Shown here in pieces: positions 258-56,017 of a stretch of 64,000 bases of DNA. The DNA lies in the NCBI RefSeq assembly GCF_964213995.1, contig NC_135804.1, forward strand, positions 59,024,001 to 59,088,000. The letters are read 5' to 3'. The position numbers and the translations under genes are program-made. This DNA is from Mustelus asterias. Its lineage: Eukaryota. The notes below the pieces were generated by a model. It did no database searches. It was not told the DNA's origin and worked only from the letters and a program-made list of their open reading frames with translations. Position 1 is the stretch's first letter; every line of letters starts with the position of its first letter.

Positions 258-565
258 GGCGGCACGGTGGCACAGTGTTTAACACTGATGCCTCACAGTG
301 CCAGGGACCTGGGTTCGATTCCTGCATTGGGTCACTATGTGGAGTCTGCAAGTTCTCCTTGTGTCTGCGTGGGTTTCCTCTGGGAGCTCTGGTTTCCTTC
401 CACAGTCCGAAAACGTGATGGTTAGGTGCATTGGCTATGATTATTTCTCCCTCACTGTACCCAAAAAGGCGCTGGAGTGTGGCGACTAGGGGATTTTTAC
501 AGTAACTTCATTGCAGTGTTAATGTAAAACCTACTTGTGACTAATAAGTAAACTGTAACTTTAAA
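258..565 (+). mobile_element. tRNA-headed SINE (HE1-like head, tail type ending ...aataaataaacttt)
   Basis: A-box-like GGTGGCACAGTG, B-box GGTTCGATTCC and the conserved core gtgtctgcgtgggtttcctc shared with eight other copies. Confidence 0.85.
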
Positions 566-954: not shown

Positions 955-1779
955 TGTTGTAGGGAAATATCCCTTACCAGTGCAGAATAGAAGTTGAGTC
1001 GCAAATCAAGGTTCAAAGCGTGTCTTTATTGTACAATTACTGGGATCCCAGGGAGACCCCCGTAGCCAGCTCAGAAACAGTGGCTTGGCCACGTTGATCT
1101 CAATTAAATCACATCAGCGGTGTATCTTTATAGAGTTTCAAATTCAAGCGGGAACATTTGATTATGCATTTTTACAATATGTATAAAGTGGTCTGTCAGT
1201 TTAAAAAGTCCCTAGGAAGTTTCATCGATTAGCATTTGTATGGTGTGTGTTCGTGTTAATGGGATTACTTGGTCCTGCCCCGGTGTCTAAATGCGTTTCC
1301 CATTATCTTCTCTATGTGTCCTCTTATCTGAATTGATCTTATTGTTTCGTGTCTGTGTTTCCTGCTTGTGAGATTGAGTGTTAATGTCATCCTGTCCTGT
1401 TGGATGTCTGGAGTATTTCATTCTAATCTTTTATTCTTGTATCTTAGTTTATCAGATTTTTATGTCTGCCTTGGCCGAATTGGTAATATTTCAGTGATAG
1501 CTTGGTTTTGATAGCCCACTCTATGTCTCGTTTCGTAGGGATCTTGATCGTCCTTGGCCAGTTTAAAATGCAGCTGCGCGCTGTTGCTAGGCAGATTAGG
1601 GATCTTCCGTAGTTTTTGAAATTCGTGAGTCTCTCAGCTGTGCAGGGGGGGACCCGATCGAATATCCATCCGGGGGTGCCCCTCTGCATTGTTGGCCCGT
1701 TATGAGTGGTGCCAATTAGTCCAATATGTAAATATGTTTGATGATACAAATATGGTTTTCTGGAAAATTTCCTCCTTCA
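955..1779 (-). mobile_element. Solo LTR, endogenous-retrovirus-like
   Basis: Minus strand begins TGAAGG and ends CAACA. 4-bp TSD AAAT at 951-954 and 1780-1783. Minus-strand TATAAA at 1127-1132 followed by AATAAA at 1025-1030. Confidence 0.8.
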
Positions 1780-1927
1780 AAATGTTGGTATGAAGTGTCC
1801 TCTTTTATTCACTGCTAATTTTTTCGTGATGTTTATCACATACAGATGTAATACATGATGGTGAATTCAGCTCTTGTGGGAAAGGAGAAGGCTGTCATTT
1901 TCTGGCTAACAATTGCCACAAGAAGTC

Positions 1928-2123
1928 GTCTCACAACACCAGGTTAAAGTCCAACAGGTTTATTTGGTATCATGAGCTTTCGGAGCGCTGCTCCTTCATC
2001 ACCTAATAAAGGAGCAGCGCTCCAAAAGCTCATGATCCCAAATAAACCTGTTGGACTTTAACCTGGTGTTGTGAGACTTCTTACTGTGCCTACCCCTGTT
2101 CAACTCCGGCATCTCCATATCAT
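1928..2123. mobile_element. Fold-back Penelope-like terminal-repeat insertion with decayed hammerhead motifs
   Basis: ~75-bp inverted arms. TSD AATTGCCACAAGA(A)GTC at 1911-1927 and 2124-2139. Minus strand reads TGATGA-A-GGAGC-AGC-GCTCC-GAAA-GCTC. Confidence 0.7.
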
Positions 2124-2996
2124 AATTGCCACAAGAGTCAGACAGTTTTGAAAGAAAAGAAACATAGACCCTGAAAGCGAGTCTGGCACTTGGAAGCTAA
2201 CTATCAAGGCAGCTAAACTGAGATTGACATACTTGAGCGAAAGGAGCCCTGTGCCAGGATTATAGGGTAGAATGTAGATGGCTTATTCTGTTTAGATTAA
2301 GCTAAAAGACCCACCAATGTAGAATAGCATTCATTTCTTTAATATCATTATGTGAATTTGTGTTGTGTGATTTAAAGAATGCAACCTATTGCTTCATACA
2401 ATCTACTTTTCTGAATTGTGCAGGTAAGATTAGGAATTCACCTAGTTTAACCCTCAGTCCACCTTCAGAAAGATTGAAGAAATACAAATGTAAAAGACGC
2501 AGAGGGTTTTATTGTTACAACTCTGAGCCTTGCTACCATATAAATGGATATTGAATAGTCAACTCACTAAAAATATGATAATCAGGCCACATACAGGAGT
2601 GATTGACACCGACAAGGTGTCTATAACAATATTAAGTTAATGACAAGTTTAAAGAACAGAAAACTTCTTTAAACTGTTATCTTTGTTAGAAGTGTAGCAA
2701 ACAACTGAATGTTCTGGTTATGATTTTTCATGTTCTTCTGCTTCTTTGAATAAAGTAAGTTCGAAAGAACTTGCGTTTACACAGTGACTTTCATGATCCA
2801 AGGAAGTCCCAAAGTGCTTTACAACCAGTGAAGTACTTTTGAATTGTACTCGTTATATAATGAAACTTGGCAGCCAATTTGCACACAGCAAACTTGCAGA
2901 AACAGTAACGGGGTAATGACAAGATAATCCACGTTGTAATGCTGTTCAATGGACAAATTTTAACCAGGATACCATGAGAACCCCTCTGCTGTTCTT

Positions 2997-3263
2997 ATCA
3001 TAGAATCCCTACAGTGCAGAAACAGGCCATTCGGCCCATCGAGTCTGCATCTCAGGACACTAAGGCGCAATTTTATCAGGGCCAATCAACCTAACCCACA
3101 CATCTTCGGACTGTGGGAGGAAACCAGAGCACCCAGAGGAAACCCACGCAGACACGAGAAGAATGTGCAAACTCCACACAGACAGTGACCCAAGCCGGGA
3201 ATCGAACCCAGGTCCCTGGAGCTGTGAAGCAGCAGTGCTAACCACTGTGCTACCGTGCCGCCC
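2997..3263 (-). mobile_element. tRNA-headed SINE with CR1-like tail
   Basis: Reverse complement of the same head and core, with a tail ending gggattctatgat. Confidence 0.85.
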
Positions 3264-6333: not shown

Positions 6334-7179
6334 TAGAACATAGAACATAGAACAGTACAGCACAGAACAGGCCCTTCGGCCCACAATGTTGTGCCGAGCT
6401 TTATCTGAAACCAAGATCAAGCTATCCCACTCCCTATCATCCTGGTGTGCTCCATGTGCCTATCCAATAACTGCTTAAATGTTCCTAAAGTGTCTGACTC
6501 CACTATCACTGCAGGCAGTCCATTCCACACCCCAACCACTCTCTGCGTAAAGAACCTACCTCTGATATCCTTCCTGTATCTCCCACCACAAACCCTATAG
6601 TTATGCCCCCTTGTAATAGCTCCATCCACCCGAGGAAATAGTCTTTGAACGTTCACTCTATCTATCCCCTTCATCATTTTATAAACCTCGATTAAGTCTC
6701 CCCTCAGTCTCCTCCGCTCCAGAGAGAACAGCCCTAGCTCCCTCAACCTTTCCTCATAAGAGCTACCCTCCAAACCAGGCAGCATCCTGGTAAATCTCCT
6801 CTGCACTCTTTCCAGCGCTTCCACATCCTTATAGTGAGGTGACCAGAACTGCACACAATATTCCAAATGTGGTCTCTCCAAGGTCCTGTACAGTTGCAGC
6901 ATAACCCCACGGCTCTTAAACTCCAGCCCCCTATTAATAAAAGCTAACACACTATAGGCCTTCTTCACAGCTCTATCCACTTGAGTGGCAACCTTTAGAG
7001 ATCTGTGGATATGAACCCCAAGATCTCTCTGTTCCTCCACAGTCTTCAGAACCCTACCTTTGACCCTGTAATCCACATTTAAATTAGTCCTACCAAAATG
7101 AATCACCTCACATTTATCAGGTTTAAATTCCATTTGCCATTTTTCAGCCCAGCTTTGCATCCTATCTATGTCTCTTTGC
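6334..7179 (-). mobile_element. CR1-clade LINE 3' fragment (HER1-like)
   Basis: ORF 6417-7214 has WAEKWQMEF..DKCEVIHFG, RPHLEYCVQFWSP and RRLRGDLIEVYK. (ttctatg)n 3' microsatellite tail. Confidence 0.92.
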
Positions 7180-7240
7180 CTACATTTGCCTACAAGTTTG
7201 CCTACAAGTAGCACCTACTTTGCCTACAAGTAGCACCTAC
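7175..7240 (+). repeat. Iterated TTTGCCTACA(AGTAGCACCTAC) repeat at a CR1 5' junction
   Basis: Four units of 10, 12, 22 and 22 nt. Confidence 0.85.
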
Positions 7241-13099: not shown

Positions 13100-16000
13100 G
13101 GGGCATACATTTTCTCCCATATTCAGGAGCAGCATGATGCCATCTGGCATCACGGCCCCCACTGCGGTCCCACCCATCCTGCTCCTGACACCTCGGGTGA
13201 GTCCTCAGAGGATGCAGGTGAAGGGACCTCCGAGGGTGGCACCTTTTTGGCGTCAGCTTCCACCTCACAACTCAGCTTCCCAGATACTCTCACTTCGGCT
13301 GGTCCAGTTAGTGGTGAGGCTTCTGGATCACTCTCTGGTGAGCACAATACATCTAATAATGTACATCGGGTGGAGGAGGGAACGTCGGAGGCCTCTGGCA
13401 CAGGGGGCCTGCCGGAGGTAAGGACTCAGCTGGCCCCAGACTACATGCTGGGCCTCTGAGATCACTTCTTTCTCAGCTGCTGGAGATGCAGCAACAGAGC
13501 CAGGGAATGCAGAAGGGGCTGACGGCCACACTGGACCAACTGCGAGGCTGCTGGGAGGAGTCCCAAAGCTTTCAGGTTGACCAGTTATTGCCTGTCTTGC
13601 TTGGTTCCCAGGCTAACACTGCACCTGCGGTGAAAAGCCTGAGACAGAGAATCCTCGCCATGAGTGGCAGGTTCCAAGCGATGGCCAAGTCACAGCAGGC
13701 CACAGCGGAGTCCCAGAGGGCCACGGCTGAGTCACAGTGAGCCACAGCTGAGAGACTCAACAGGCTTCTCAAGGTTCTGCGGCCCATGACTGAGAGGCTT
13801 GGGAGTTTGCACGAGACCCAGCGGGACAGCGCTGAGACACAGCGGGCTATGGCAGCAGCACTTGAGAACATGACCCAATCACAGAGGGCCAAGGCTGAGT
13901 GGCTGCAGAGCGTGGCCCAGTCTCAGAGGGCACTTGCTGCCACGATTGATAGGTGGCTCCCAACTCAGGTGGTGATCACAGAGGGCTCGACCACCAGGGG
14001 TAAAATGCAGATGGTCTTCCAGGACTGGTAGGGCTGGCTGACGCTGGAGCTTCTGGAGCTCACTGCAGAAGCACCTCCATCCCATGTAGTGACCCAGGGG
14101 CCCACAGGGAGCAGGAAGGACTCGAGCCCAGGCCTTCCAGCCAGGAGACTGGCTGTGGCTACACCTTCTGACTCCCCTCTTCCTGACACCGGGGCATCTG
14201 AGGCGCAGTGGGATGAAGAGGGTGTCGTGACTACATCCCAGACATCTGGGAGCCGGCCAGGCCCTCTAGGTCCAGGCCCTTCAGAGGAAGCGCATCACAG
14301 GCCAAGGGGCGTGGTAAGCAGCTGGCCCCCTCCACCTCCGATGTATATTCTGGGGGGCACCAAGACATAATGGTAGGCCACGCAATGTTAGGAAGTTGTA
14401 GTTGCACTAAGATGGCACAGGTGAAGGGCACCACTAGTTAGATAGATATTTAAGCACTTTAATGTTTTCTGTTCACATGTTTTTATATTGGTACTTATTA
14501 TTTAGACACTTTTGTTGTCAACAATAAATGTTTTTTCACCAACTGTGACTAATTTGTCTCAGATTTGTCTCTTATAGGAATCCTCCTCCCTTGAGGGTTG
14601 CTGGAGTGATGCTTCATGTTGATGTCAGTTGGGGAGGCCCCTCAGTGCTGTTTCACTGAGAAAATGCAGGCATTGGTATCCCAGAACCTATGAGAGATTA
14701 TCTCCCCTCCTCCACCCCAGTGACCCCGGGGCCCCGTATGGGGGTTTACAGATCCCTTATCCACTACACAGATGTGGGTCCAGGTGTCAGCGTGCATGCG
14801 GAGATCAGGTAGGAGTCAGACTAGATTGCACCAGGACATCATCATAATGGTGCGTTGTCACCACCCTCCTACCCAGGCCCACCATTCTGGTGTTACAATG
14901 TTGCAGGAGATAGTAGGACTTTGTGGAGGAGGGGGGATGGAATCCATGTGCAGAAACACAGGCCCCTAGTGAGCAAAGCGCCTGGTGATCAGAGCCTCCC
15001 TCGCAGCCATTGTGTGCCTGACCCTTGCTGTCAGCCCTCCAGCGCCTGGGTGGTGTTGCTCAGCCTTGTCCTTCTCTTCCTCCTCCTATTCCTCCTCTTC
15101 ATCCTGCTGGGCGTTCTCCTCCCCAGCGACATCTGGTCGATCGGCCTCCACATCCTGCTCCTCCTTCAAAAGGGTCTCCTCGCTGTTGTGCCAGGTTGTG
15201 AAGGGCACAGCACTCCACTACAATGCGGGAAGAAATCAGGGGGCTATATTGTGGGGCCCCGCCAGAGTGGTCCAGGCACCTGAACCACATTTTGAGGAGC
15301 CCTATGCACTTCTCCACTATTGAACAGATGGCAACGTGAGCCTCATTATACCGGGTCTCCGCATCAGTCTCAGGCCTCCACACAGGTGTCATCAGCCAAG
15401 TCCGAAGTGGGTACTCGCTCTCACCCATGAGCCATCCCTGCAGCCTGGGCTCCTCAAAGATCTCCAGTATGTCTGAGCTCCTCAATATGAAGCTATCATG
15501 CACGCTGCCAGGGTGTCTGGCGCAGTGTCTGGGACAGCACGGCAGCACAGTGGTTAGCACTGCTGCTTCACAGCTCCAGGGACCTGGGTTTGATTCCCGG
15601 TTTGGGTCACTGTCTGTGTGGAGTTTGCACATTCTCCTCGTGTCTGCGTGGGTTTCCTCCAGGTGCTCCGGTTTCCTCCTACAGTCCAAAGATGTGCGGG
15701 TTAGGTTGATTGGCCATGCTAAAAAATTGCCCCTTAGTGTCCTGAGATCTGTAGGTTAGAGGGATTAGCGGGTAAATGTGTAGGGATATGGGGGTAGGGC
15801 CTGGGTGGGATTGTGGTCGGTGCAGACTCGATGGGCCAGATGGCCTCTTTCTGCATTGTAGGGTTTCTATTTCTATTTCAGATGTGCATGATGTTCATCT
15901 TTTGGTCACAAACCAATTGCACATTTAGGGAATGGAATCCCTTTCTATTCATGAATCGTCGTGGATTCTGAAGTGGGGCCTAGAAGGCAATGTGTGTGCA

Positions 16001-27374: not shown

Positions 27375-27680
27375 AAGCCGGCAGCCAAGTACACCAAATG
27401 CTTGATGTGAAAAATGCGATCGCGGGAGATACCGTGACTTTTCACTGCACGTTCCCGCTGTTCAGGGATGTTAATAAGATCGCAGTGTACTGGTGGAGAG
27501 ATGGCGAACGAGAATTCTTAAAATCGCAGCAAGATTCCAGGAGAAGTTTCGAGGTTGAGACCAAAGCGAGCGCCACTCTGCGCATTGTCAAGGTGCGTTT
27601 TGAAGACGCCGGAGTTTATTATTGTCGAGTGCAGGGTGAATATAATGGAAATGGAACCGGCATACAGCTGGGTGTAAGCG
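27375..27680 (+). CDS. IgSF gene exon 2: V-set (VJ-type) domain
   Basis: Poly-T tract plus aatag acceptor, G|gtgagt donor, phase 1-1. Has B-strand Cys (TFHC), C-strand Trp (VYWW), EDAGVYYC and a J-like GNGTGIQLGV G strand. Confidence 0.92.
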
Positions 27681-27699: not shown

Positions 27700-29720
27700 G
27701 ATTGTGGAAAACACAAGTTAAATTTACAATAATAGCAATCGGGGCCAGTGATGTAGGGCAGAGGAATGGCTTGAGAAAACGGCCGGATGGATACACCTAA
27801 TCGACATTAATTTCTCATTTGCCACCCTTCATTATGGCACATTCACAGTGTAAGAAGTCTAACAACACCAGGTTAAAGTCCAACAGGTTTATTTGGTTGC
27901 AAAGCTTCACAATGCACAGCCGACCATTGCGTCTGCGGTGGGAAGCTGACAGAATGAGAGACACGGCCACGGCAGGTCGGAGCTTTTGTTGATGGAAGTT
28001 CAGCACAGAAAGCCGAATGCTGACTATTGCGCGAATCGGACCCCACCTCGGCATTTGTTTATTGGGTTCTGGGGATTTCCGCAAGCTCCCGCTTTAACTG
28101 CTATTTCGAAATAACATTCATTTAAAATATACATTTCACAATCTCCTCTAATTGTTACAAGATGCGAAATGTAACAAGCGTTGACAATAAGCTATCACCT
28201 CCCATCCAGTGAAATCGCTCATTTATCCTCCAGTCTTGAATGGTTTATGTTTAGAACGAAATCCACCAGTTTTAAATGCGTTTAAACCCTTTCACTGTTT
28301 GTTACCCCCTTTTCTGAAATGAAAATCTCAGAATTGGCAACACAGAAACGTAAACCTCGGCCAAAAGTGTGGGTCGAAAACTTTTAAAAATAAAATAAGA
28401 ATATTAGAAATATTCAGACGGTCTGTGGTGAGAGAAACAGAATTAACGTTTAGAATGGAATATGGCTCTGCTTCGGAAGTTTACTGAGATCTCCAATGTT
28501 CTTGTCCAGGATAATTTGGAGGCATTGTCAGCGGAACTGAATAAAAACAGGTCTGAATAACATGAAAATTCTTGTCCACGTCAGGGAGAATCATTATTCA
28601 CTTTAAGTAATGTCGTATAGGATTTGTCTCGCAAGGTCGGCGTTAGACACCAGTGGATATCTTCTCTCATTGGGTATCTGGAGCGAAGTGCTTATTTTTC
28701 AAAACCACTTTGCTCCAGTTATCCAAGCAGTAGATTTTTCCAAAGTCGGATCCAGTCGGATCAGAAAGTTTCTAGAGGTAGAGCGAACCGGATTGTTGTA
28801 TTCGGCCGAGTTATTGATCGATTCTTGAGCATATTTTTTCTTTGTTGAATGTGTTTAAAAATGCTCTGATTAGGTTATAAAATCCGCTCGACCCAACATC
28901 GTCCATTTTACACATTAGTGCAAAATTAAATCACTATGTGTAGTCAGAGGTACATCACTGGAATAAGAGGGTTGACGTCATATCTATCGCAAGTTTTATT
29001 CCCTATTGATATCACCCGTTTAGTACCGTTGACAAATCGTTCCGAATTATTAAAACAAACTGCAACTCACCAGCTGTCCAAACCCCTGATCATTCTGTTT
29101 CAAACTCAAGGGCCACATATAAAGAATCGCAGTTAAACACCGAATTTCCACACGAGAAAAAATCCCTCCCGCATTTGAGCCCCCCTATCTAGCGTGTGTT
29201 CCTCTGGTCTAAGTGGAAACTCCCAGTAGATTAATCGAAAATCTACATAACAAACTTTTCTGTCCCTGAAAATTAATAATATTCGAATCGGAACGTTTAA
29301 TTGTTAAATGTTAAGATTTATTCAGCTTCGTGTCAAATATATGTTCTTCTCAAGTTGTTAATTGTCAATTCAATGGGTTCAACCCGACCATTTACTTCGC
29401 GTTTGGCGTCCGAAACCATGACGTGCTCGAAGCAACTAATATTTGGGGAAGAAAGTAAAAGGTTTGATTCTGGGACGAGTCTTTCTTTAATCGTTCTTTG
29501 AACCAGGACCCTACTTGGAATTTAATTTGTGGCACTGTAATTTATTACCTTGGCTAACAACAATAATTTCTCACTCTCAATAGAAATTGGGACGTTGGTT
29601 GTAGTTTAAAAATACTGTCATGGCCGAAAGTTCGACTGCCCTTCCACACGCCTGTCATTGTAAATGCAAAGAATGTACCGACTTTTATCCAGTCCTTTTC
29701 TTCAGCATTCCCGTTTTTGC
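27700..29720. promoter_or_regulatory. CpG-retaining intron-2 region with NF-kB and CRE motifs
   Basis: GGGGATTTCC at 28071-28080, GGAAACTCCC at 29215-29224, TGACGTCA at 28973-28980. CpGs are visibly more frequent than in flanking unique DNA. Confidence 0.4.
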
Positions 29721-29997: not shown

Positions 29998-30307
29998 AGG
30001 TGGCGCAATGGTTAGCAAAGCTGCCTCAGAGCACCAGGGATCCGGGTTCCATGCCAGCCTCAGGTCACTGTCTGTGGAGTTTGCATGTTCTCTCCATGTC
30101 TGCGTGGGTTTCCTCTGGGTGATTTGGTTTCCTCCCTCACTCCAAAGATGTGTGGGTTAGGTTGATTGGCCATGCTAAATTGTCCCTGAGTGTCTGGGGT
30201 ATGTGGGGTTAAGGGATAGGACCTGGGTGAGATTGTCAATGGTGCAGGCTTGATGGGCCAAATGGCCTCTTTCTGCACTGCAGGGAGTCTACAATTCAAT
30301 TCTATGA
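29998..30307 (+). mobile_element. tRNA-headed SINE
   Basis: Same head and core, CR1-like tail. Confidence 0.8.
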
Positions 30308-30970
30308 TAATTGATAGTCTTAGCTTCAACCCAACAATTTAGACTTCAGGACCAAGCTATTGTTTAATCAATGCTCCATTTTGCTGAAAATAAATTATTT
30401 ACAACATAGAGTTTCCATAGGGGAAAATAATAGGAGAATAGGTTGTTTGGACATCCAGTCCACTACGGCCAACTGCCACATTCCTCAGGTTTTCCTATGA
30501 CGCTCTGCACCTTTGTTCTGCCATTTACACATTCTGGTCTCTTAATGGATGCTCCTAACACCATTCTCAGGCTTACTGCTCATTTACAACATTGTAAGTT
30601 TCTCCCTTTGATCCTTTATTATCCCTAACTCCTGTTGTCCACCAGAGTTGGACCGCTTTTTCTATGGATTTTTGTGCCTTAAAGGAATTTATAGTTGTTG
30701 CAACCCATGTCTTAACCCTGAAATACAAGACATTGCTTGCCCACTGTCATAACTTTAAATGTAGTTTTCCAAGTTATCCAGAACTACACAGGCAGCTTAA
30801 GAACATAAGAAGAAATAGGAGCAGGAGTAGGCCATCTAGCCCCTCGAGCCTGCAATAAGATCATGGCTGATCTGAAGTGGATCAGTTCCACTTACCCGCC
30901 TGATCCCCATAACCCCTAATAAGAACATAAGAAATGTTCTTATTTCTTGTTCACAACAGAAGGTGTTGTG

Positions 30971-31318
30971 AGGCAGCATGGTGGCACAATGCTGCCTCAC
31001 AACACCAGGGACCTGGATTCAATCCCAGCCCTGCTTGATTGTCTTTGTGGACTTTGCATGTTCTCTCTGTGTCCACATGGGTTTCCTACAGGGTGTTCTG
31101 GTTTCCTCCAACATTCCCATATTACAATGTTGCGCAGGTTAGGTTGATTAGCCATGCTAAATTTCCCCTCAATGTCCCAGGATGTATAAATTAAGGGGAT
31201 TAATGGGGTAAATACGTGGGGTTAGGGAGATAGGGCTTGGGTAAAATACTCTGTTGGAGAGTCAGTACAGACTCGATGGGCCAAAGGGCCTCTTTCTGCA
31301 CTGTAGGTGTTCCATGAT
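30971..31318 (+). mobile_element. tRNA-headed SINE (diverged)
   Basis: Same head and core, CR1-like tail. Confidence 0.78.
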
Positions 31319-31430
31319 ACATAGTTTATGTTAAGATTAAAGACCCTAGATTCAGACTTAACTTTCAAATTCTCCTAAGGCCCCTTTGCTAAAAGCTTGT
31401 TAATTATCTCTTTCTTATTGCCCAATACTG

Positions 31431-31760
31431 TATAGAATCATAGAATCCTACAGTGCAGAAGGAGACCATTCAGCCCATTGAGTCTGCACTGACCACAATC
31501 CCACCCAGGCCCCATCACTATAACCCAATGCATTTACCCTAGCTAGTCCCCCTGACACTAAGGGGCAATTTAGCATGGCCAATCCACCTAACCCGCACAT
31601 CTTGGACTGTGGGAGGAAACCGGAACACCCAGAGGAAACCCACGTAGACACGGGGAGAATGTACAAACTACACACAGACAGTGACCAAGCCGGGAATCGA
31701 ACCTGGGTGCCTGGCACTGTGAGGCAGCAGTGCTAACCACCAGTGCCACTGTGCCGCCCA
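31431..31760 (-). mobile_element. tRNA-headed SINE
   Basis: Reverse-complement copy with a (ctatgatt)n tail. Confidence 0.85.
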
Positions 31761-33469
31761 TATCTAAAATAGCCTGCTCCCTGGTTGAATGCACACCATT
31801 CTGATTTATAAAACTATTTTCTACACATTCCATGATCTTTCTTTTCCACACCATTACTACAATTTAGCTTGCCTCGCCCATATAAAGATTAAAGCTCCCC
31901 CCCACTCCGATCACTGTATTATCTTTGTTACATGCACCTCTAATTTGATGGTTTATACACTGTGCCATACACCACAACTAAATGTAGGTGGCCTATAAAC
32001 AACTCACAACAATATTTTATGCCCCTTGTTGTATCTTAGCTCCTGTTCTTCCTTCAGATACTCTGCCCGTGGTGACCATGGACTTTCATTGGTTTGGTCT
32101 ATGATTCTGCTTGGCAAAGTTTTGCAATGGTTTCTTTCAGCAGTATGACTAACTGGGAAACTCTCCCAGTCTTACTGTCTACTTTCAGGCATATCAGAAG
32201 AATTTACAGGCTGATAATCAACCTGTTTGATGAGCATTTCATGTTTTTAGCTCAGAAAAATCAAGAGGTAGAATCAGTTTGGGCGGAGCTAAGATCCACT
32301 TTCTCCACTGACTTCACTTTGTCCTTTATTATCAGGGTCACCCTTCCTCTTTTTCCAGTTTGCCTATCTCTTCTAAAAATGAAGCATCGTGACTATTTAG
32401 TTGCCAACATTGGTCACGTTACAACCACATATTTGTAATAGCTGCTCAATCTAACCTATGAATTTGTTTTTTCTGTCCTTTGTCTTAAATCTTTCTGATT
32501 CAATCAAAAATCTTTATTCCTTGGTTCTAGACTAATTTATTATTTCATATTTTTGTTTTAGTTGTTATTTAATGGGCATGGCTCAGTAGCAGCACTCTTG
32601 GTTTTGAATCCAGATGGTCCAGAATCCAGACTGTCCACTTGGGTGAAAATATAATATTTCAGGGAAGAAGAGCAGGCATGTTGTCCCAGTGTCCTGGTCA
32701 ACTATACACCTCAACCAAAGTCATTTAAAAAATGATCTTATTGTTTATGGGAACTTTCTGTGGTCAGCCAGGTTGCTGTAAAGTATGTTGGCTGCAAAGT
32801 GCTTTGGAGCATTGTGAAAGAGGTTAAGTAAATGGAAGTTCAACTTTGACGGTGATGTGCATTTCATCTGACAAAGGGATACAGTCAGATGCAAATGTGT
32901 TAGTGCATTAGCTCCTGACAATATGTAACATTGCAGCATTTTTTTGTGATTCTTTTAAAAAAAATTCTGCAGAATGTAAAACTTACCATTTAGGCACCTG
33001 GTGTTAGCTTTGCCTACCTCCATCTGAGGGGGATGCACCTCCCAGATCAAATGCAGGATAGCCAAATGCAGTCTCACTTAGGCAGTGGAAGTTAAAATTC
33101 TGTCTTTTGACCTGATACAAGGTTATTTATCACCAGTTTGTGAAAGCGTTTATATCAAAATGAACTTAAATGTTTGTGTTTTAATTATGTTTGCATGTCC
33201 CTGGACAAAAAGTGATATGAAGCAGAAAGATAAAATAAATATGAAAAGGGAATAGCTCAGAAAAACAACCCGAGTTCCATTTTAAAAACTCAAATATTTG
33301 CTAAAGCACATTGGCGGGAATGAAAATTACTTTGGTCTTTGTGTTGCAAATAAACAGAGTCATAAAGATTCCCTGTCATTGGTAAATTCTCGGGAAATTG
33401 GAAGTGATATATTTAGAATTTTACGAGAAACTTTTACCAAGAAACATATTTCCCCTCAAAGGGATTTTA

Positions 33470-35061: not shown

Positions 35062-35358
35062 TTCCTCCAGATCCTCTGAAGATTTCGCCAAAGCTTTTTG
35101 CGAATGGCTCTCTAACATGTTTGTGTGAAACGTCTGAGTTCTATCCTGATAGTTACACCATTGTTTGGCGTAAAGATGGTAAAGAAGTTACGGCTGGAGT
35201 TGAGAAATCCATGAAGAAGAATGCTAAGGGACTGTATGAAGTTACCAGTTATTTGAAAGAGCCACAGGCAGGTCCAACTGGGACTGTTTATATCTGTGAG
35301 GTATCTCACTCGACCCTTAAAGCTCCAACTTCAGTCAACTACACTGTTCAATTCGCAG
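35062..35358 (+). CDS. IgSF gene exon 3: C1-set domain
   Basis: ttttatag acceptor, G|gtagga donor, phase 1-1. C1 signature LCETSEFYP..YTIVWRKDG...LYEVTSYL...YICEVSHSTL. Confidence 0.92.
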
Positions 35359-39140: not shown

Positions 39141-39260
39141 GCATTGATTCCAGCTGGCTTTTTCCTTGGTGGGTCTACCTCTGTGGAGCCATAGCTTTAC
39201 TGCTTCTGATTATTGCAGTGGTGCTTTGTTGTAAATTATGTTGTTGCAAAAAACGTAAAG
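39141..39260 (+). CDS. IgSF gene exon 4: transmembrane (GIDSSWLFPWWVYLCGAIALLLLIIAVVLCCKLCCCKKRK)
   Basis: tcttgcag acceptor, AAAG|gtaagg donor, phase 1-1. Hydrophobic stretch followed by a Cys cluster and a basic stop-transfer sequence. Not in the ORF track. Confidence 0.85.
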
Positions 39261-44880: not shown

Positions 44881-45059
44881 CTCGTGAAGGCAACATTCAA
44901 ATGAGGCGTTGTGTTCGCTGCTCTGAGCCAGTAACGAAAAATCCTAAATGCGATGAACAAGGAGTAAACAAAGACAATACTCAGACACCACAGAGGAACA
45001 TGAGCAAAGTCGAAAAAGCTAATGAAACCCCACCGAAGCGCAAGAAACACCATAAATGA
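44881..45059 (+). CDS. IgSF gene exon 5: cytoplasmic tail (AREGNIQMRRCVRCSEP...ETPPKRKKHHK*)
   Basis: Strong pyrimidine tract with ctcacag acceptor, phase 1, open for 59 codons to TGA. AATAAA downstream at 45477. The five-exon CDS totals 957 nt (318 aa). Confidence 0.7.
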
Positions 45060-46119
45060 GATCGGTACCCCACATGTGCCTGATGGTGGGAAAACAAATC
45101 TGAAGAGTATTTTGTAACAATCATAGGTTGTCTATAAAGAATACCATCATTACATACTTCATAAGTGAGTCAACCAGAGAATTCCAACAAGACTTAGCAT
45201 CATAAAATTATTGCATTTAACTGTATTTGTTAACTCACTAAATCATTATTTCTGTGAATTAATATTTCTGAATCAATAATATGCTTATCTGAGTGCTTTT
45301 GACAGTTCTGGCAGGGTCATTGGAAGGATGTTCATATTTCACTGAGGATTGTTGTGAGTGAATTAATTTCTGAAGGATTCTCATAGTAGGAAAATGTGAT
45401 ATGCACAAATTTAACTCAATTCCAGTCCTCCAGCCACTCTGTGGAATTTTTGCATCTGTTCACTTATAGTTTATAAAATAAATTGCCCCATTCATATACC
45501 TACGGAATTTGAGTTCACCATTGACAGCCAGTTTATATATATATAAAACATTTTATTCTCCATTTGTACCCTTTCATGGAATTCAAGGCCATATTTGCAC
45601 CTCATTGGGGTAATTTGGATTTTGTGTGCTAGTATAAAATGGCTGATAGGGAGTCGGCACCTTATTTTACATCTCCTCCAATTTATGTTTACCCCTCCCC
45701 CCTCCACCCCCTCCCCACTATACAGAATTTTGGTGTCCACTTCCATCTAATATATTAAATTGTATTGACTCCTTACTTAAGTGCTGTTTCAGGTACTGTA
45801 CATTTCATAACATTTCAGGGCTCTCGTCACATACACTATGTAACATTTTTATTTACTTTTTACAGTTAGTGGACTGAATTTGCATTCCCATTCATACTAT
45901 GCATACAGAATAATAATACTCATTCAAATCCAGTGTCCATAGTTCTGTATCATTTATTGCTAGTTTGCAGGACACCCATTTATATCTAATTTCCATTATA
46001 ATTATCAATACTTCACCATATTATACATTTAATTACATTCTAAATTTACAATATACAAGTGCTTATATTGTTATGCAAATCAAGTTATGAAAGTATACTA
46101 ACTTAAAAGTATTGGCAGT

Positions 46120-46820
46120 TGAGGGAGAGCTAAGTAAATTTTAAAATAGCAAGAGGCCTAGTTGGTGTAAATAGAGGCAACATATTTACTTTAGCATAGG
46201 GATCAAAAGCCACCTTCTGGCTAAGATCAAGTGTAGTATTGGCAGTCCTGCACTTGATAGAAGTCAATGAGGTTACACTGAGGCTTCATTTGAAGCAATT
46301 TTTTAAAATGGCATCTCGGCCTTTTGGCTAAGATGCAAATAAAATCAAGCACTGGAGGGGGTGCAATGCCTGCTCCTATCAGCTTGGATCATGTAGATCA
46401 AGCCCAAGATAGGAAGAGGCTTGCCTGTCTTGTCAGCTTGGATCTGTAATGTCTCACTGGTTGAGACTTTGAATTGGACTTTGATTAGATTTGATTGGAT
46501 ATAGCTAAAGAAAAAAGGATCAAAAACCAGGGAGCATGGATTTAAAGTAATTGGTAGAAAGATTAGGAGGGAGATCAGGAAATATTTTTTAACCCGGAGA
46601 GTGCTAGGGGTGTGACAATCACTGCCTGAAAGGGTGATAGAGGCAAAAACTAACACCACATTTAAAAATTAGTTGAATGTCTACTTGAAGAGATGTGACC
46701 TGCAGGGATACAGGACAAATGCAGGAAGGTGGGATTAGGGTAAGTATCTCTTCATTGACTGACACAGGCAAAATGGGCCGAATGACCTCCTTCTGAGCTG
46801 TACATTTTCTGTGATTCTAT
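46120..46820 (+). mobile_element. CR1 3' fragment hosting the U2-derived insert
   Basis: Decayed CR1 C-terminus (GHGFKVIGRKIRREIRKYFLTRRV) and a ttctgtgattctat tail, split at 46213-46516. Confidence 0.7.
46213..46516 (+). mobile_element. U2 snRNA-headed SINE-like retroposon
   Basis: U2 nt 13-39 (1 mismatch) at 46213-46239 and U2 nt 7-27 (exact) at 46314-46334. A-rich tail. 13-bp TSD GGATCAAAA(G/A)CCA at 46200-46212 and 46517-46529. Confidence 0.78.
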
Positions 46821-47204
46821 TTTGTTAATTTCATATTTCAGTGACTATCAGTAGTAAGTTATTTATACTGTTATCCTGCACTATATATCATTTGTTATAA
46901 AGGATTGTGTTGTATATACACCTGTCTGATACTGTTATGATAATTGAGCTAAGATATAATAAAAATACAACTAACTCCTTTGTTTTAAAAATGTACAAAT
47001 GGTGAAGTACAGTACAAGAGGTGACACTAGTTTATTGATTGCATTAAATATCCCTCAGAGGCTTTTGCTACTACTTATTTTGGAATATTGGCCTGATACT
47101 AAGAGTCAATGAATAACTTATCAACCTATAATTTATACAAAAAGAAAAGCCACCTTCAAATTTGAAACATGCCTGATGAAAATCTATATTAAGCACTATT
47201 TTTG

Positions 47205-47622
47205 GTCGGCTGGATTTTCTAACTCTTCCTGCTGGTGGGATCTTCTGGTTCCATTGAAGGCGAACCCCCCACGGCAGGTCCCCCGGCAACAGGAAGGGGG
47301 AGCCACGCAAAACGGTGTAGCAATCAGAAGGACTGGACAATCCCACTGGCGGCCAATGGTGACTCATCTCTGCCACTGGAAAACACGATGCGGAGATGCC
47401 GGCGTTGGACTGGGGTAAACACAGTAAGAAGTTTAACAACATCAGGTTAAAGTCCAACAGGTTTATTTGGTAGCAAATGCCACACCTTTTGCTACCAAAT
47501 GTGGCTTTTGCTACCAAATAAACCTGTTGGACTTTAACCTAGTGTTGTTAAACTTCTTACTGGAAAACACGCCTGGTGGGGCTGGGGTGGGGGCACGGGG
47601 GGGGGGGTGAAAAATCCTACCT
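47205..47622. mobile_element. Short Harbinger-type MITE
   Basis: Termini GGCTGGATTTTC and GAAAATCCTACC. Contains a nested fold-back insert. Confidence 0.55.
47388..47558. mobile_element. Fold-back Penelope-like insertion nested in a MITE
   Basis: Same family as 1928-2123. 13-bp TSD ACTGGAAAACACG at 47375-47387 and 47559-47571. Confidence 0.72.
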
Positions 47623-47948
47623 GCTATTTCTATTTTATCTCTTGCCATAGTAAGTAAAGTAGGAAGTTAATGCCAGGCATATCTGTTACCTTATCTACTG
47701 AGTGTCATCACAGTTGATGTAGACAGCCATGCACTTTTTAAAATGCAATCAGTTTGTATTTTAACCCTGGTCAGAATTCTCAAATATATCGTATGCCTCG
47801 CCATCGCTGCCAGTGAGAGTGGAGAATTTGGTGCTCAGTCAAATCTCCATTAGCTGAAGCGGAATGGGAGAATTCCAGTCCCGAGCGAGGTCAGAGAATT
47901 TGTTTTTGTAACCAATCTGGAACCTGAAAATGCTGAAATAAATTGTAG

Positions 47949-48122
47949 TAAGAAGTCTCACAACACCAGGTTAAAGTCCAACAGGTTTATTTGGTAGCAA
48001 AAGCCACTAGCCTTTCGAAAGCTAGTGGCTTTTGCTACCAAATAAACCTGTTGGACTTTAACCTGGTGTTGTGAGACTTCTTACTGTGTTTACCCCAGTC
48101 CAACGTTGGCATCTCCACATCA
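47949..48122. mobile_element. Near-perfect fold-back Penelope-like insertion
   Basis: ~68-bp arms (47947-48085) centred on TTTCGAAA. 14-bp TSD GA(A/G)ATAAATTGTAG at 47935-47948 and 48123-48136. Confidence 0.75.
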
Positions 48123-48241
48123 GAGATAAATTGTAGGCAGTGATAGCTAATAGAGCACAAACAAATGATTGAGCTTGGGAGATTCCTTTGCTCCCTGGGT
48201 TCCCAACACACTATTTGATTTTCAACTCAGTTAGATACATT

Positions 48242-50394
48242 GGCCGGGATTCTCCCAAAAGAATTCTGGGCATGATTCTCCCAGCCCGCTGTGCTGCTTT
48301 AGCACAACAGGCCAGGAAACATCAGTGGAGGCCCTTTCATGAGCTTCCCACTCGGGACCATGACCTCCGTGTGTCTCCCGCTCCAAGTTTTTTTCGAGTA
48401 ATCTGTTCCGTGCTGGAAATTGGTGCAGAGCTGATTTTAATATTTAACTTAATATTTACATTCGATTAGTGGGCTTGGGACTGATGTCTCCGGGCCTGCC
48501 AGCGTCTCATCTTCCACCAGGAGTGGTTCACTCCAGCAGAGTTTACAACTGCTCCCCCACTAATGTAGAACAGGCAGCTGATTCCACTGGAATGAAGAGA
48601 GGCCATTGAGGCCTCCCCAGAAGGTTTGGAGTAGAGGGGGTGTGCCCCTTGGGCAGTGCCAGTCTGGCACACTTATACAGCCCAAGAGGAAAACTGACAA
48701 TGCCCAAGGGGCACCTTGGCACTGCCCCCCAGGCATTGGGGAGTGCCAAGGGGGTGGGGACAGAGGAGGTGGGGCTTATAGGGACGATTGGTGGGGATGA
48801 GGGGGTCCCGCGCCACTTTGCATTTGGGATCAGTAGCAGAGGGGAGGAGGACGGTGATCTGGGCTGACCATCCTGATGGGGGTTGGGGCTGCCGGGGCGG
48901 TTGGGCCTGGCTGGGGTGTTGGGACTGCCAGGGGGATGGGAAGATCAGGGCTGGCGAGGAGTTGGGGAAATCGGGGCAGGCTGGTGGGGGGGTGGGGAGA
49001 CTTGGGCTGGCCCGGAGAGGTCCGGGAGGCTAGCAATTGGGGATTGGGGCTTCAAAAAGGCCAGTGATGGGGGGGGGGGGGGGGGGGCGGGTTGCGGGGC
49101 TGGCCAGCGATCAAGAGGCTGGAAATGCGGAGCTACTGTGCATACGCCAACCTCTGCTCTGATAGATCGGCGCTTGCGCAGTGGCCTGCTCAGCGCTATG
49201 CTGCCGGCCTCTCCAATGGGAATAGGCCCCGCCCCTTGCTTTTCAGAGGGAATCCCGCTTAGGGCACTCTGCACTGCTCAGTGTCGGAGATTCAACTGCA
49301 AAATCTTGCTTTAAAAAAAATTGGAATTGGTTTAAAAACTTCGAATTATTTTGGGTGAATCCCGATCTCTAAGTCCCCTTGTGCGTGAGAACGGGAGTAA
49401 CTGCCACTGGTTTTTTAGCGGGATTTTCAGGTTGAATCTCCGACACTCGGCGCATCAAAGAATGCCCAGCGTGATTCACTCTGAAAATCTGTGGGCAGGG
49501 CCTATTCCCGCCTGAGAGCCCAATAGCATGGCGCTGAGTGGGCCACTGTGCATGTAACGATCTGTCAGTGTGGAGATTGGCCCATGCGCAGTAACCCCAC
49601 ATTGCCAGCCTCTTGATTGCTGGCCAGCCCAATTGCTGGCTGGCCCCACAACCCCCATCGCTGGCCTTCTGATTCCCCCCCCTTCCCCAATCGCTGACCT
49701 CACGGACCTCCTTGGGCAAGCTCCAATGTCCTCACTCCCTGCCCCCACCAGCAGCTCTTACCCCACCCCGGCAGACCTGACCTTCTGGCAGCCCCAACTT
49801 ATCCCCCCACCTGGATTGCCAGCCCCGATCACCATCCTCCCTCACTCTGCCACGAGCCCCAAGTGCAGAGTGGCAGTGGGACACCCCACCCCCACCAATC
49901 GCACCCAATTTGCCCTGCCCACCCAATAGGCACCACCTCCTTGGCACCACCCCATTGGTACTGCCTGATGGGCAGTGCTAAGGTGCCCTTGTGCAGTGCC
50001 AGGAGGCCAGGCTGGCACTGCTCAGGGGGCACCCCCTTACCCATACTTCCTGATGGGATCTCAATGGCTGCTCTTCACTTCAGTGGGGTCAGCCGTCTGT
50101 TCCCTGTGGGGAGCAGTAGTAAAACTCGCTGGAGTGAACCACTCCTGGCAAGAGATGACTGAGATGCTAGTTGTCCCAGAGACCTCAGACCGGGGCCTGC
50201 TAATGACATTCAAATCGTGAATATAATATTGAAATCAGCTCTGCACCAATTTCCGGTGTGGAGCTGATGATGCTGAAAGATTTTGCTAGCGGAGGCCTGG
50301 GCGCCCAGCGGGAAGCCCATGAAGCGGCAGCTGCTGATGTCTCCCGGCCCGCTGCACTGCTAGACCAGCAGAGCGGGCTGGAAGAATCGCCCCC
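48242..50394 (+). mobile_element. Harbinger-type MITE with an inverted same-family MITE nested at 48268-49367
   Basis: Outer TIRs GGCCGGGATTCTCCC and GGAAGAATCGCCCCC with 3-bp TSD ATT. The inner element is flanked by 3-bp TSD TCT. Confidence 0.78.
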
Positions 50395-50634
50395 ATTGTT
50401 GCAAATCAGGACCAGAGAGCAGGATTTTCAGATGGTGAAGCTTCCTGTCCTGCCACCCAAAGCATTAGCTGGGAATGCACCCTGCTGATACAGGCTGGCT
50501 TGCAGCCGCTTAGAGCTCCAAGGGGCATTATTTCACTGGAGATGGGACTTCTACCCCTCACTCAGAAGGAAGTGCCATGGCTGCCAGCTCTAGTCCCAGC
50601 AGCGCCAGTAGCAGTAGTAGCCAGACTGGAATCC

Positions 50635-50765
50635 ATGATGTGGAGATGCCGGCGTTGGACTGGGGTAAGCACAGTAAGAAGTCTCACAACACCAGGTTAA
50701 AGTCCAACAGGTTTATTTGGCAAAGAAACCTGTTGGACTTTAACCTGCTGTTGTGAGACTTCTTC
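50635..50765. mobile_element. Fold-back Penelope-like insertion (short arms)
   Basis: Same family, arms of ~40 bp, with an imperfect flanking duplication. Confidence 0.65.
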
Positions 50766-52289
50766 CTGGACTGGGATTACCAGCATTTCCCTTATTCAAA
50801 GGAACAGATATATGCAGATGCTCACATGGTAGGGTGATTAACTCTTTCGAAATAAAATAAGGTACTCTTTGACCATGTGGATTGGGGAGGGGGGGGTTTG
50901 ATCAGCACAAAAATACAGTGGATGGGGACAATGATGGGTGCATGGTCACAGAAGAAAACAAAGAGGCAAAGAGGATCTGCCCGAGGCTCAGTATTGCATA
51001 GTATGCCCCAGGGATATGGACAAAATGGATGCAGGATAAACAGTTAAAATATGGGGCAATCCCTTCAAATAAAGGACAGTGAGTTACTTTGTCTCAAAAT
51101 GGGATGGAGAAGTGAGACGTGGGCGATGGGGAGGAACAGGCGGGGATCTTGTTGGAGAGGCTTGGGGGATAAGGGGGCAGACCTTGTTGAGGTTGGGGAA
51201 GCTATGTGGAAAGGAAATTGCTGAGGGTGCCATTCCCCTGTCCTACCCCGGTCCAAGCATGGTGACGTGGCTGACATCACTCCTGTCTCAGGGCTCCACC
51301 TGCTAGCCTCAAAATTGGGAGTTGGTGGGAAATTTCCCTTAAATAGTCATTAAGTGCCCACTTAATGGTCTCAGTTGGAGCAAGGATGGATGGGCTGGCT
51401 TAGACCTCACACACATTTGTTAAATTGTGGACAGGTCAGGGCAACATCCTGGGAATGTTACGTGCCACCAGCACTTTCAAAATACGAAGAGGGGACCATG
51501 AAATTCTGCTCATGGATCTCATTCAAGTAAGAACGCTCATTTGTTACTTGTATAAATCTTTGTGTTCCAACATTGATGCCACTAGAGTTCGTGTAAAAGT
51601 CTTTATGCATAAGCTGTGTATAAACATTGGGATTGGTTTCCAGCTGCTGTTTCTCACATAGAAGTTGAAGGAAGCACCCCAAAGGTCACCGGATTCAATT
51701 TTCAGGTGGGCTTGTAAATGGGCGAGCGTGCTGTCTGCTTTCAATTGGAAGTTTCTTAACTATGGAAAATGATGTCCTGCATCAACCTGAAAATCTCAGT
51801 TGTGATTTTGTGATGCGGTTGGGTGTGTGGCATCACTCAAATTCCACATGCTTACGCTATGTGTTGAACCATCTATTGGAGGCCACTAAAAATGTGGTGA
51901 AGGAAATTTCTCATCTTTATTTTTGTAAGCCCAGGAAGAGTTTCCTGTACCCAAAATATTTTGTCCCTTGGCTGGCGATGTGAGTACCTCCCACTGGCTC
52001 CCTGGATTTACTCCACATCTTCCCAGGCCCCACATGCTTAATGCAGGAGCTGGCCGATTTCCTACGTTTTCTAACTGGCAAGTTGCTGTGAGATTAACCT
52101 TTGGTACCTGCAGCTCTCCACTGGCATCAAAATGAGGCTTCGGCATAAAGATTCTTGCCCTGTTTTGAGTGGAAGTTGAAGGTTCCTCCATTGCATTTCT
52201 AGTGGTTTCTTATCACATGGGTGTGCTTCACCTGCCTACCAATGACTGCTGATTTTGGTAGTGCTCCATTTTCTATTTATATTGCCCTA

Positions 52290-55676: not shown

Positions 55677-56017
55677 GGTCGGCACGGCAGCACAGTGGTT
55701 AGCACTGCTGCTTCACAGCTCCAGGGACCTGGGTTCGATTCCCGGCTTGGGTCACTGTCTGTGTGGAGTTTGCACATTCTCCTCGTGTCTGCGTGGGTTT
55801 CCTCCGGGTGCTCCGGTTTCCTCCCACAGTCCAAAGATGTGCAGGTTCGGTTGATTGGCCATGCTAAAAATTGCCCCTTAGTGTCCTGGGGTGTGCAGGT
55901 TAGAGGGATTAGTGGGTAAATATGTAGGGATATGGGGGTAGGGCCTGGGTGGGATTGTGGTCGGTGCAGACTTGATGGGCCGAATGGCCTCCTTCTGCAC
56001 TGCAGGGTTTCTATGAT
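55677..56017 (+). mobile_element. tRNA-headed SINE (young)
   Basis: Highly similar to the copy at 15533-15877. Confidence 0.88.

Follow-up and report, generated by a model that had tools for sequence, protein, structure and literature searches.

A probable shark retroposon family built from decayed 5′ halves of U2 snRNA

Genomic context of the insert

The window, by which we mean the whole 64-kb stretch of DNA analysed, carries on its plus strand a gene of the immunoglobulin type and, ~1.15 kb past the stop codon of that gene and on the same strand, a short insert containing pieces of U2 snRNA. The coding features upstream are as follows.

27375-27680, 35062-35358, 39141-39260 and 44881-45059 (+): four exons of the Ig gene, in one frame
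44881..45059 (+): last coding exon of this Ig V-C1-transmembrane gene, which has Pfam V-set and C1-set exons

The gene product, 299 aa without its leader, is made up of V, C1 and transmembrane exons and ends in a basic tail. An AATAAA lies at 46958, and the insert probably sits in the 3′ UTR of the gene. The window copy of the insert has an AATAAA of its own at 46338-46343, where most reads of the family described below have G at 46341 and 46343; if the insert does lie in the 3′ UTR, this hexamer could act as an alternative poly(A) signal.

That the host is a shark had been proposed from the letters of the window, and protein comparison bears this out. An ORF at 6417-7214, part of a LINE, has its best relatives in Stegostoma (73% identical), Mustelus (71%), Chiloscyllium (70%) and Hypanus (66-68%), so that shark and ray proteins span 66-73%, while bird and turtle proteins reach at most 58% among the 120 matches listed. 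The top match (78%) bears a bacterial label and comes from a 1.6-kb contig, and we take it to be contamination. An elasmobranch host is thus well supported by sequence comparison. Other repeats are plentiful in the window. A repeat of ~330 nt occurs many times (15537-15870, 55682-56014, 31437-31762, 30003-30309, 30972-31319 and others) and presumably resembles the shark HE1-type SINE, HE1 being a tRNA-headed SINE. Nested elements with ~48-nt terminal inverted repeats lie at 47375-50768, 1917-2123 and 27850-27903, and a DDE_Tnp_4 (Harbinger-like) fragment lies at 15102-15755.

Boundaries, target site and tail

The insert measures 304 nt (46213-46516, +) and splits an older LINE remnant. Its outer features are listed here.

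46183..46820 (+): host site, the old 3′ end of a LINE presumed to be CR1-type, split by the insert and in the same orientation
46200..46212 (+): 5′ target-site duplication (TSD), 13 nt, 12/13 identical to the 3′ copy
46507..46516 (+): A-rich tail, 9/10 A
46517..46529 (+): 3′ TSD, 12/13 match to the 5′ copy, placed by the empty-site alignment

The interrupted LINE end is 57-68% identical to LINE copies elsewhere in the window, among them the paralog whose ORF at 6417-7214 matches reverse transcriptases; we label it CR1-type on the strength of its C-terminal motifs. When an empty site was made in silico by taking out 317 nt (the insert and one 13-nt TSD), the resulting junction aligned without a gap to the paralogous LINE 3′ end at 6640-6462 (106/179 identical, E 2e-9). 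Because of this ungapped alignment, both boundaries of the insert are fixed independently, and the 304-nt element must indeed have inserted into an aged LINE remnant. The length, the 13-bp TSD and the A-rich tail of the original prediction accordingly hold, coordinates included. The TSD evidence is that of a single TSD, belonging to the window copy.

The one non-A letter of the tail is the G at 46510, where 39 of 44 reads have A, and other copies of the family likewise show an A-rich continuation before running into unrelated flanks. No AATAAA was found directly upstream of the A-tail. The target lacks a starting A-run and in this differs from the mammalian L1-type site. From the 13-nt TSD and the A-tail it is plausible that a LINE of the Tx1/L1 clade moves the family; for the whale shark, the available text of one genomic survey gives Tx1 as present and full L1 as absent (PMC8455134).

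U2 ancestry of the insert

As U2 reference we used a fish-like gene, L008 (183.5 bits), one of the real U2 genes that a motif scan drew from bacterial assemblies, where they are contaminants; such genes score 140-184 bits with the Rfam model. The best score of the insert against Rfam U2 (RF00004) is 22.4 bits (E 0.055), with further scores of 21.6 and 17.8 bits, all under the gathering score of 46. The insert is not a functional U2 gene by this score or by its T-run, which is without the closing G of an Sm site; neither an intact Sm site nor the U2 3′ half was detected in it. In a joint alignment, all units are collinear with U2 nt 1-100, and the insert folds better than its shuffles (z -3.3, 0/100).

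Heads of other kinds were searched for as well. Rfam gave no match at gathering score anywhere in the window, tRNA genes and a tRNA or 5S head were likewise not found, and the heads of classical SINEs (tRNA, 5S, 7SL) are absent from the insert's Rfam matches at E<=10. No U1 part was found in the insert. The remaining weak Rfam matches (snoRNAs, miRNAs, U4atac; E 0.17-9) were taken as chance. The insert has no A box and one isolated B-box-like 9-mer at 46396, and contains internal T4 and T6 runs. A search for the loop motif of HDV-like ribozymes gave nothing convincing beyond one match with 1 mismatch.

The first unit, A, consists of a U2 head and a body.

46213..46239 (+): unit A head, U2 nt 13-39, 5′-truncated; 26/27 vs U2 gene L008, placed by covariance-model alignment
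46240..46310 (+): body of unit A, which may descend from U2 nt 40-104 in decayed form
46248..46258 (+): arm antisense to U2 nt 26-36, 10/11 vs the reverse complement of U2 26-36

The range of U2 nt 13-39 claimed for the head stands, with the reservation that the match is not exact. The head includes the branch-point recognition sequence (46233-46238). In the listed contigs, other copies depart from U2 after nt 36-37, so that the match reaching nt 39 may be peculiar to the window copy. In the predicted fold the head is paired to the antisense arm, and the pairing takes in the first four bases of the branch-point recognition sequence; their predicted unpaired probability is 0-0.02 in unit A versus 0.13-0.95 in real U2; the head/arm hairpin has a z of -3.6. 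The branch-point sequence of unit A is thus predicted to be masked by pairing.

For the body of unit A, a U2 origin is only suggestive at the sequence level. Aligned without gaps to L008 it matches at 24/58 (p 0.005), whereas five other U2 genes give p 0.08-0.8, and a profile test for U2 likeness was not significant (50/395). A T6 run at 46299-46304 lies no more than 1 nt off the register of the U2 Sm site. At 46263-46284 a resemblance to U4 (by eye 17/22 positions of the Rfam consensus; 15.7 bits, E 0.85) was rejected, as the loose-end consensus of the family differs there.

The second unit, B, has its own stem-loop I followed by two related modules and a 3′ part.

46311..46336 (+): second U2 stem-loop I, nt 4-27, start of unit B; 23/24 vs L008
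46342..46390 (+): module 2, U2 nt 24 to ~60 in decayed form, interrupted behind nt 31 by 12 inserted nt
46395..46444 (+): module 3, a duplicate of the preceding module; 8/8 to U2 nt 24-31
46445..46506 (+): 3′ part, in which a small hairpin (46451-46467) takes the place of U2 stem IIb and precedes the TTGAT repeat
46480-46499 (+): TTGAT repeat, two 10-nt units, 9/10 identical

An exact second copy of U2 nt 7-27 had been claimed, and 46314-46334 indeed matches L008 at 21/21. Two changes in this stem-loop lengthen its stem, and the hairpin has a z of -5.8. Behind it, module 2 matches U2 nt 24-31 at 7/8 and, ungapped, nt 32-55 at 17-18/24 in five of six U2 genes, a level reached in 0/5000 shuffles after correction for the best of 26 offsets; the sixth gene gives 11/24 (p 0.41). 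The branch-point recognition sequence of module 2 is mutated and, in the predicted fold, sits in a hairpin loop; that of module 3 is replaced. Modules 2 and 3 form a duplication of ~54 nt (alignment score 49, 0/2000 shuffles), and the duplicated TCAGCTTGGATC noticed earlier was found and belongs to this larger duplication. The TTGAT-type repeat, also pointed out beforehand, was recovered as the two units listed above.

Module 3 and the 3′ part taken together align from U2 nt 40 in five of five U2 genes, with 6-43/1000 shuffles doing as well, where a flank control reached 6/1000 in one of ten control tests; a profile test gave 2/398 genomic windows and 9/400 shuffles. In this joint alignment the 3′ part is collinear with U2 to ~nt 100, while the last 60 nt alone are not significant against U2 (380-764/1000 shuffles). 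The sequence comparisons thus show that the heads and modules 2 and 3 descend from U2, and the earlier description of the body as non-U2 is to be given up for the two modules; the unit A body and the last 60 nt are not significant on their own. In each of the three units the branch-point recognition sequence is mutated, replaced or, by prediction, paired.

A different source for the head had been suggested, namely a LINE that targets U2. Keno inserts 37 nt into U2 (available text of PMC6136364), and for both Keno and Utopia U2 resumes with nt 39 on the 3′ side (available text of PMC4640811). Transcription from a U2 promoter through U2 nt 1-37 into the 5′ end of such a LINE would have made a junction that became the head of the element. 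Keno (Tx1 clade) and Utopia insertions as described in those texts have a U2 5′ piece ending near nt 37-38 and then other sequence, and the shark element comes near to this: its first piece ends close to the Keno site, at nt 39 in the window copy and at nt 36-37 in the listed contigs of other copies. For its unit A body a U2 origin is only suggestive, and the Tx1 LINEs responsible for SINEU mobilisation fall into one cluster with Keno (PMC4494074, as far as its accessible text goes). The element differs in having no ORF, no LINE-derived part that we could find and a dispersed distribution, and its 3′ flank is a LINE end and not U2 nt 39 onward. Since modules 2 and 3 are U2-derived, the oldest-looking form breaks at U2 nt 31 and not at 37-38, and the T-run of unit A is in the register of the Sm site, we regard such a birth as unlikely; what survives of the suggestion is that the first piece ends near nt 37. 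We prefer descent from decayed U2 5′ halves for the element as a whole.

Copy number, dispersal and subfamilies

The original prediction expected a multi-copy family with dispersed, A-tailed members, and named a single-copy sequence as the contrary outcome. Reads or contigs from four of 24 listed sequencing runs, one from each of four organisms (A, B, C and F), were aligned to 45930-46829 at 80% likeness; among the listed runs, 14 from five organisms contain 48-69% of 29 sampled words, and none contains all. The copy number rests on raw whole-genome shotgun reads of B, a related organism, in which 13,196 reads aligned from 1,922.5 Mb. At 46341, a family-specific position unlike U2, depth is 7,183 reads, against 0-2 on the upstream flank. 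Family depth peaks at the second stem-loop I, and because 46341 differs between the family and U2, U2 genes do not explain this peak. With mates summed, depth in B is 247 at 46230-46259, rises to 1,056, 6,089 and then 7,366 at 46320-46349, runs at ~1,500-3,200 across the modules and falls to 390 at 46470-46499. The low depth at both ends of the element is partly due to the divergence of the window copy, and the value of 247 at 46230-46259 could reflect truncation or alignment failure. From these depths the family numbers about 8,000-15,000 copies in organism B, given an assumed genome of 2.2-4 Gb (contig totals for B are 2.1-2.2 Gb).

Dispersal is seen directly in two organisms. Past 46503 an A-rich stretch follows in 34 contigs of A and in 47 of C, after which the sequences disagree (agreement 0.55 and 0.52). 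In C, the seven contigs listed (403-1,764 nt, depth 12-18) each carry a near-full-length copy with 29-42 differences, and 8,872 further pieces lie beyond these seven. The family is thus multi-copy, with contigs of single-copy depth ending in unrelated flanks. A one-off chimeric U2 pseudogene would agree with the want of a second copy within the 64-kb window and with 0 true matches to the family motifs in prokaryotic, viral and metagenome collections, where shark DNA is not expected, but in four organisms the non-exact body is matched by reads and contigs in their thousands, which refutes that reading. Two metagenome matches to the family motifs were discarded as chance 21/22-nt matches in an unrelated coding stretch.

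The window insertion itself occurs in other organisms. A contig of A, which may be the source of the window, is identical to it over 45930-46242, reaching 30 nt into the insert; two contigs of F span the 5′ and 3′ junctions with 7 and 8 differences; and one contig of C spans the 3′ junction (29 differences and 14 gaps over 371 nt). The insertion is thus common to A, C and F and is older than their splits.

Several structural forms coexist. In B, at least 4,136 reads have the unit A 3′ part ahead of the second stem-loop, and the dimer form is therefore common there. Joints from 46334-46335 to ~46395 or 46425-46428 mark forms without module 2. The shortest subfamily has module 3-like letters directly after stem-loop I (one listed row; joints skip 46335-46427). 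Joints that go back at 46335 were rejected as evidence of extra head units, since copies whose U2 head is longer than that of the truncated window copy would produce them equally well. The main subfamily of B has the layout of the window copy in a more uniform state (agreement 0.92-0.98 in four of six listed loose ends), and 3,776 reads run on behind 46456 with a 95% uniform family tail; this subfamily is probably younger than the window copy. Its loose ends are 30 letters long and hold no tail or flank, so that its dispersal is assumed from A and C. A contig of C joins 46503 to 46312, one copy passing directly into the start of unit B, head-to-tail, and such an insertion may show how dimers arise.

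The same two observations could be turned towards a tandem satellite, or some other amplification of a U2-like unit at the DNA level that yields retrocopies only now and then: the abundant subfamily of B is uniform with its flanks outside the reads' reach, and the contig of C is joined head-to-tail. Contigs of single-copy depth with long unrelated flanks, heterogeneous sequence after the A-tail in two organisms, and the TSD of the window copy all contradict this, and we hold it very improbable. Passive retrocopying of a few host-maintained, U2-derived non-coding RNA genes, with no self-propagating SINE lineage, would account for the lack of an internal promoter, for the strong structure with its stem-lengthening changes and for the uniformity of the main subfamily in B. 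It sits poorly with the many module arrangements and loop variants across organisms, which fit master turnover, with the 7,923 of 13,196 B reads that are less than 90% alike to the window copy, and with the failure of any Rfam family to reach its gathering score; we give it little credence. A retroposon family with its own succession of masters remains our reading of these data.

Comparison with known systems

The closest parallel is the SINEU group of crocodilians. In its accessible text, Kojima 2015 (PMC4494074) detected no SINEU outside crocodilians and left open how promoterless SINEs are transcribed. According to the same text, SINEU-1, with ~7,700 copies, shares with the shark family a U2 head, an A-tail, a length below 500 nt, internal oligo-T and the lack of an internal promoter, as well as recurrent 5′ additions of U2, partial duplications and thousands of copies. 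The 3′ half of SINEU-1 is described there as of unknown origin, whereas the body of the shark element is decayed U2; the shark element has an elasmobranch host, is without a U1 part and, in the window copy, lies in a CR1-type LINE, not in Mariner-N4_AMi. SINEU-3, again as described in that text, is like the shark family mostly U2, with an intact 5′ piece of ~32 nt that breaks before the branch-point recognition sequence; it has lost ~50 nt and retains an 83-nt middle piece of U2. In the shark element, by comparison, nt 32-60 persist in mutated form, with a short insert that folds them away; the unit has undergone duplication and dimerisation, and the U2 3′ half was not detected. The shark family shows the general SINEU features that were tested, and by host it is not SINEU-1, -2 or -3.

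Tailless and poly(A)-tailed U2 retropseudogenes also combine a U2 5′ fragment with a TSD and L1-type retroposition, but are independent truncations of normal U2 in the accessible accounts (PMC2912911, PMC5322556), whereas the shark element has a common remodelled multi-module body present thousands of times. Among the short interspersed repeats of cartilaginous fishes, to which HE1, SacSINE1, the CmiSINEs and the shark element all belong, SacSINE1 and the CmiSINEs are given tRNA-related heads and L2-type tails in the parts of the reports available (PMC5499810, PMC10468316); the shark element lacks a tRNA head and terminates in poly(A). Full-text searches of the literature on cartilaginous fishes, with most subscription papers outside their scope, found no report of a U2-derived SINE. 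It is quite possible that the consensus is catalogued in Repbase or Dfam yet unpublished.

Proposed origin and spread

Taken together, the insert is probably an old copy of a non-autonomous shark retroposon family, SINEU-like in kind and built from decayed U2 5′ halves, and the best reading is that the family arose independently of the crocodilian SINEUs. One possible course of events would begin with a variant U2 gene that lost its Sm site and 3′ half, so that its transcript dropped out of the snRNP pathway and acquired an A-tail. An L1-clade LINE, most likely Tx1, would then copy this U2-derived RNA in trans by target-primed reverse transcription, leaving TSDs and 5′ truncations. As the promoter of U2 stands upstream and is left behind in copying, no more than a few masters would be active: old U2 loci, or copies that landed downstream of another promoter, probably transcribed by RNA polymerase II. 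We suppose the masters to be driven from outside because the element carries internal T-runs and no A box, and because a U2 promoter sits upstream. New masters could arise by internal duplication and by 5′ addition of a U2-derived unit, giving monomer, two-module and dimer forms. The variants tolerated may have been those with a hidden branch-point sequence, a step that is speculative.

A more far-reaching proposal, that sharks independently evolved a large SINE lineage from variant U2 genes alone, driven by external snRNA promoters, with the branch-point sequence neutralised in all three units by an antisense arm or by mutation inside an inserted hairpin, is one we offer tentatively, as possible but doubtful. 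If true, it would hint, alongside SINEU-3, at a general rule, by which a U2 gene turns into a retroposon only after losing its engagement with the spliceosome. The family would give a second vertebrate lineage with an snRNA-derived SINE, of ~10,000 copies, with several structural stages coexisting and apparently young subfamilies, and so would offer material for finding master loci, promoters and the partner LINE, and for following the conversion of a spliceosomal RNA to a parasite. Insertions held in common by several species, like the window copy, could serve as phylogenetic markers in sharks.

Other U2-bearing sequences

The motif scan met U2 sequence in other settings. Three IMG/VR contigs of 1.8-1.9 kb (L003, L004 and L005) hold a piece of ~30 nt from the 5′ end of U2, which in L003 and L004 lies at 401-419 (-), between converging genes for a helicase (Rep-like) and a circovirus capsid. 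Another 49 stretches of eukaryotic U2 (L006-L054) occur in prokaryotic genome assemblies, a sign of host contamination. Four of them (L009, L031, L034 and L045), eukaryote-like contigs of one bacterial assembly, carry a variant of U2 (150.8 bits) whose branch-point recognition region is altered, and also tandem or truncated U2 5′ pieces joined to a common non-U2 body, possibly another U2-derived repeat.
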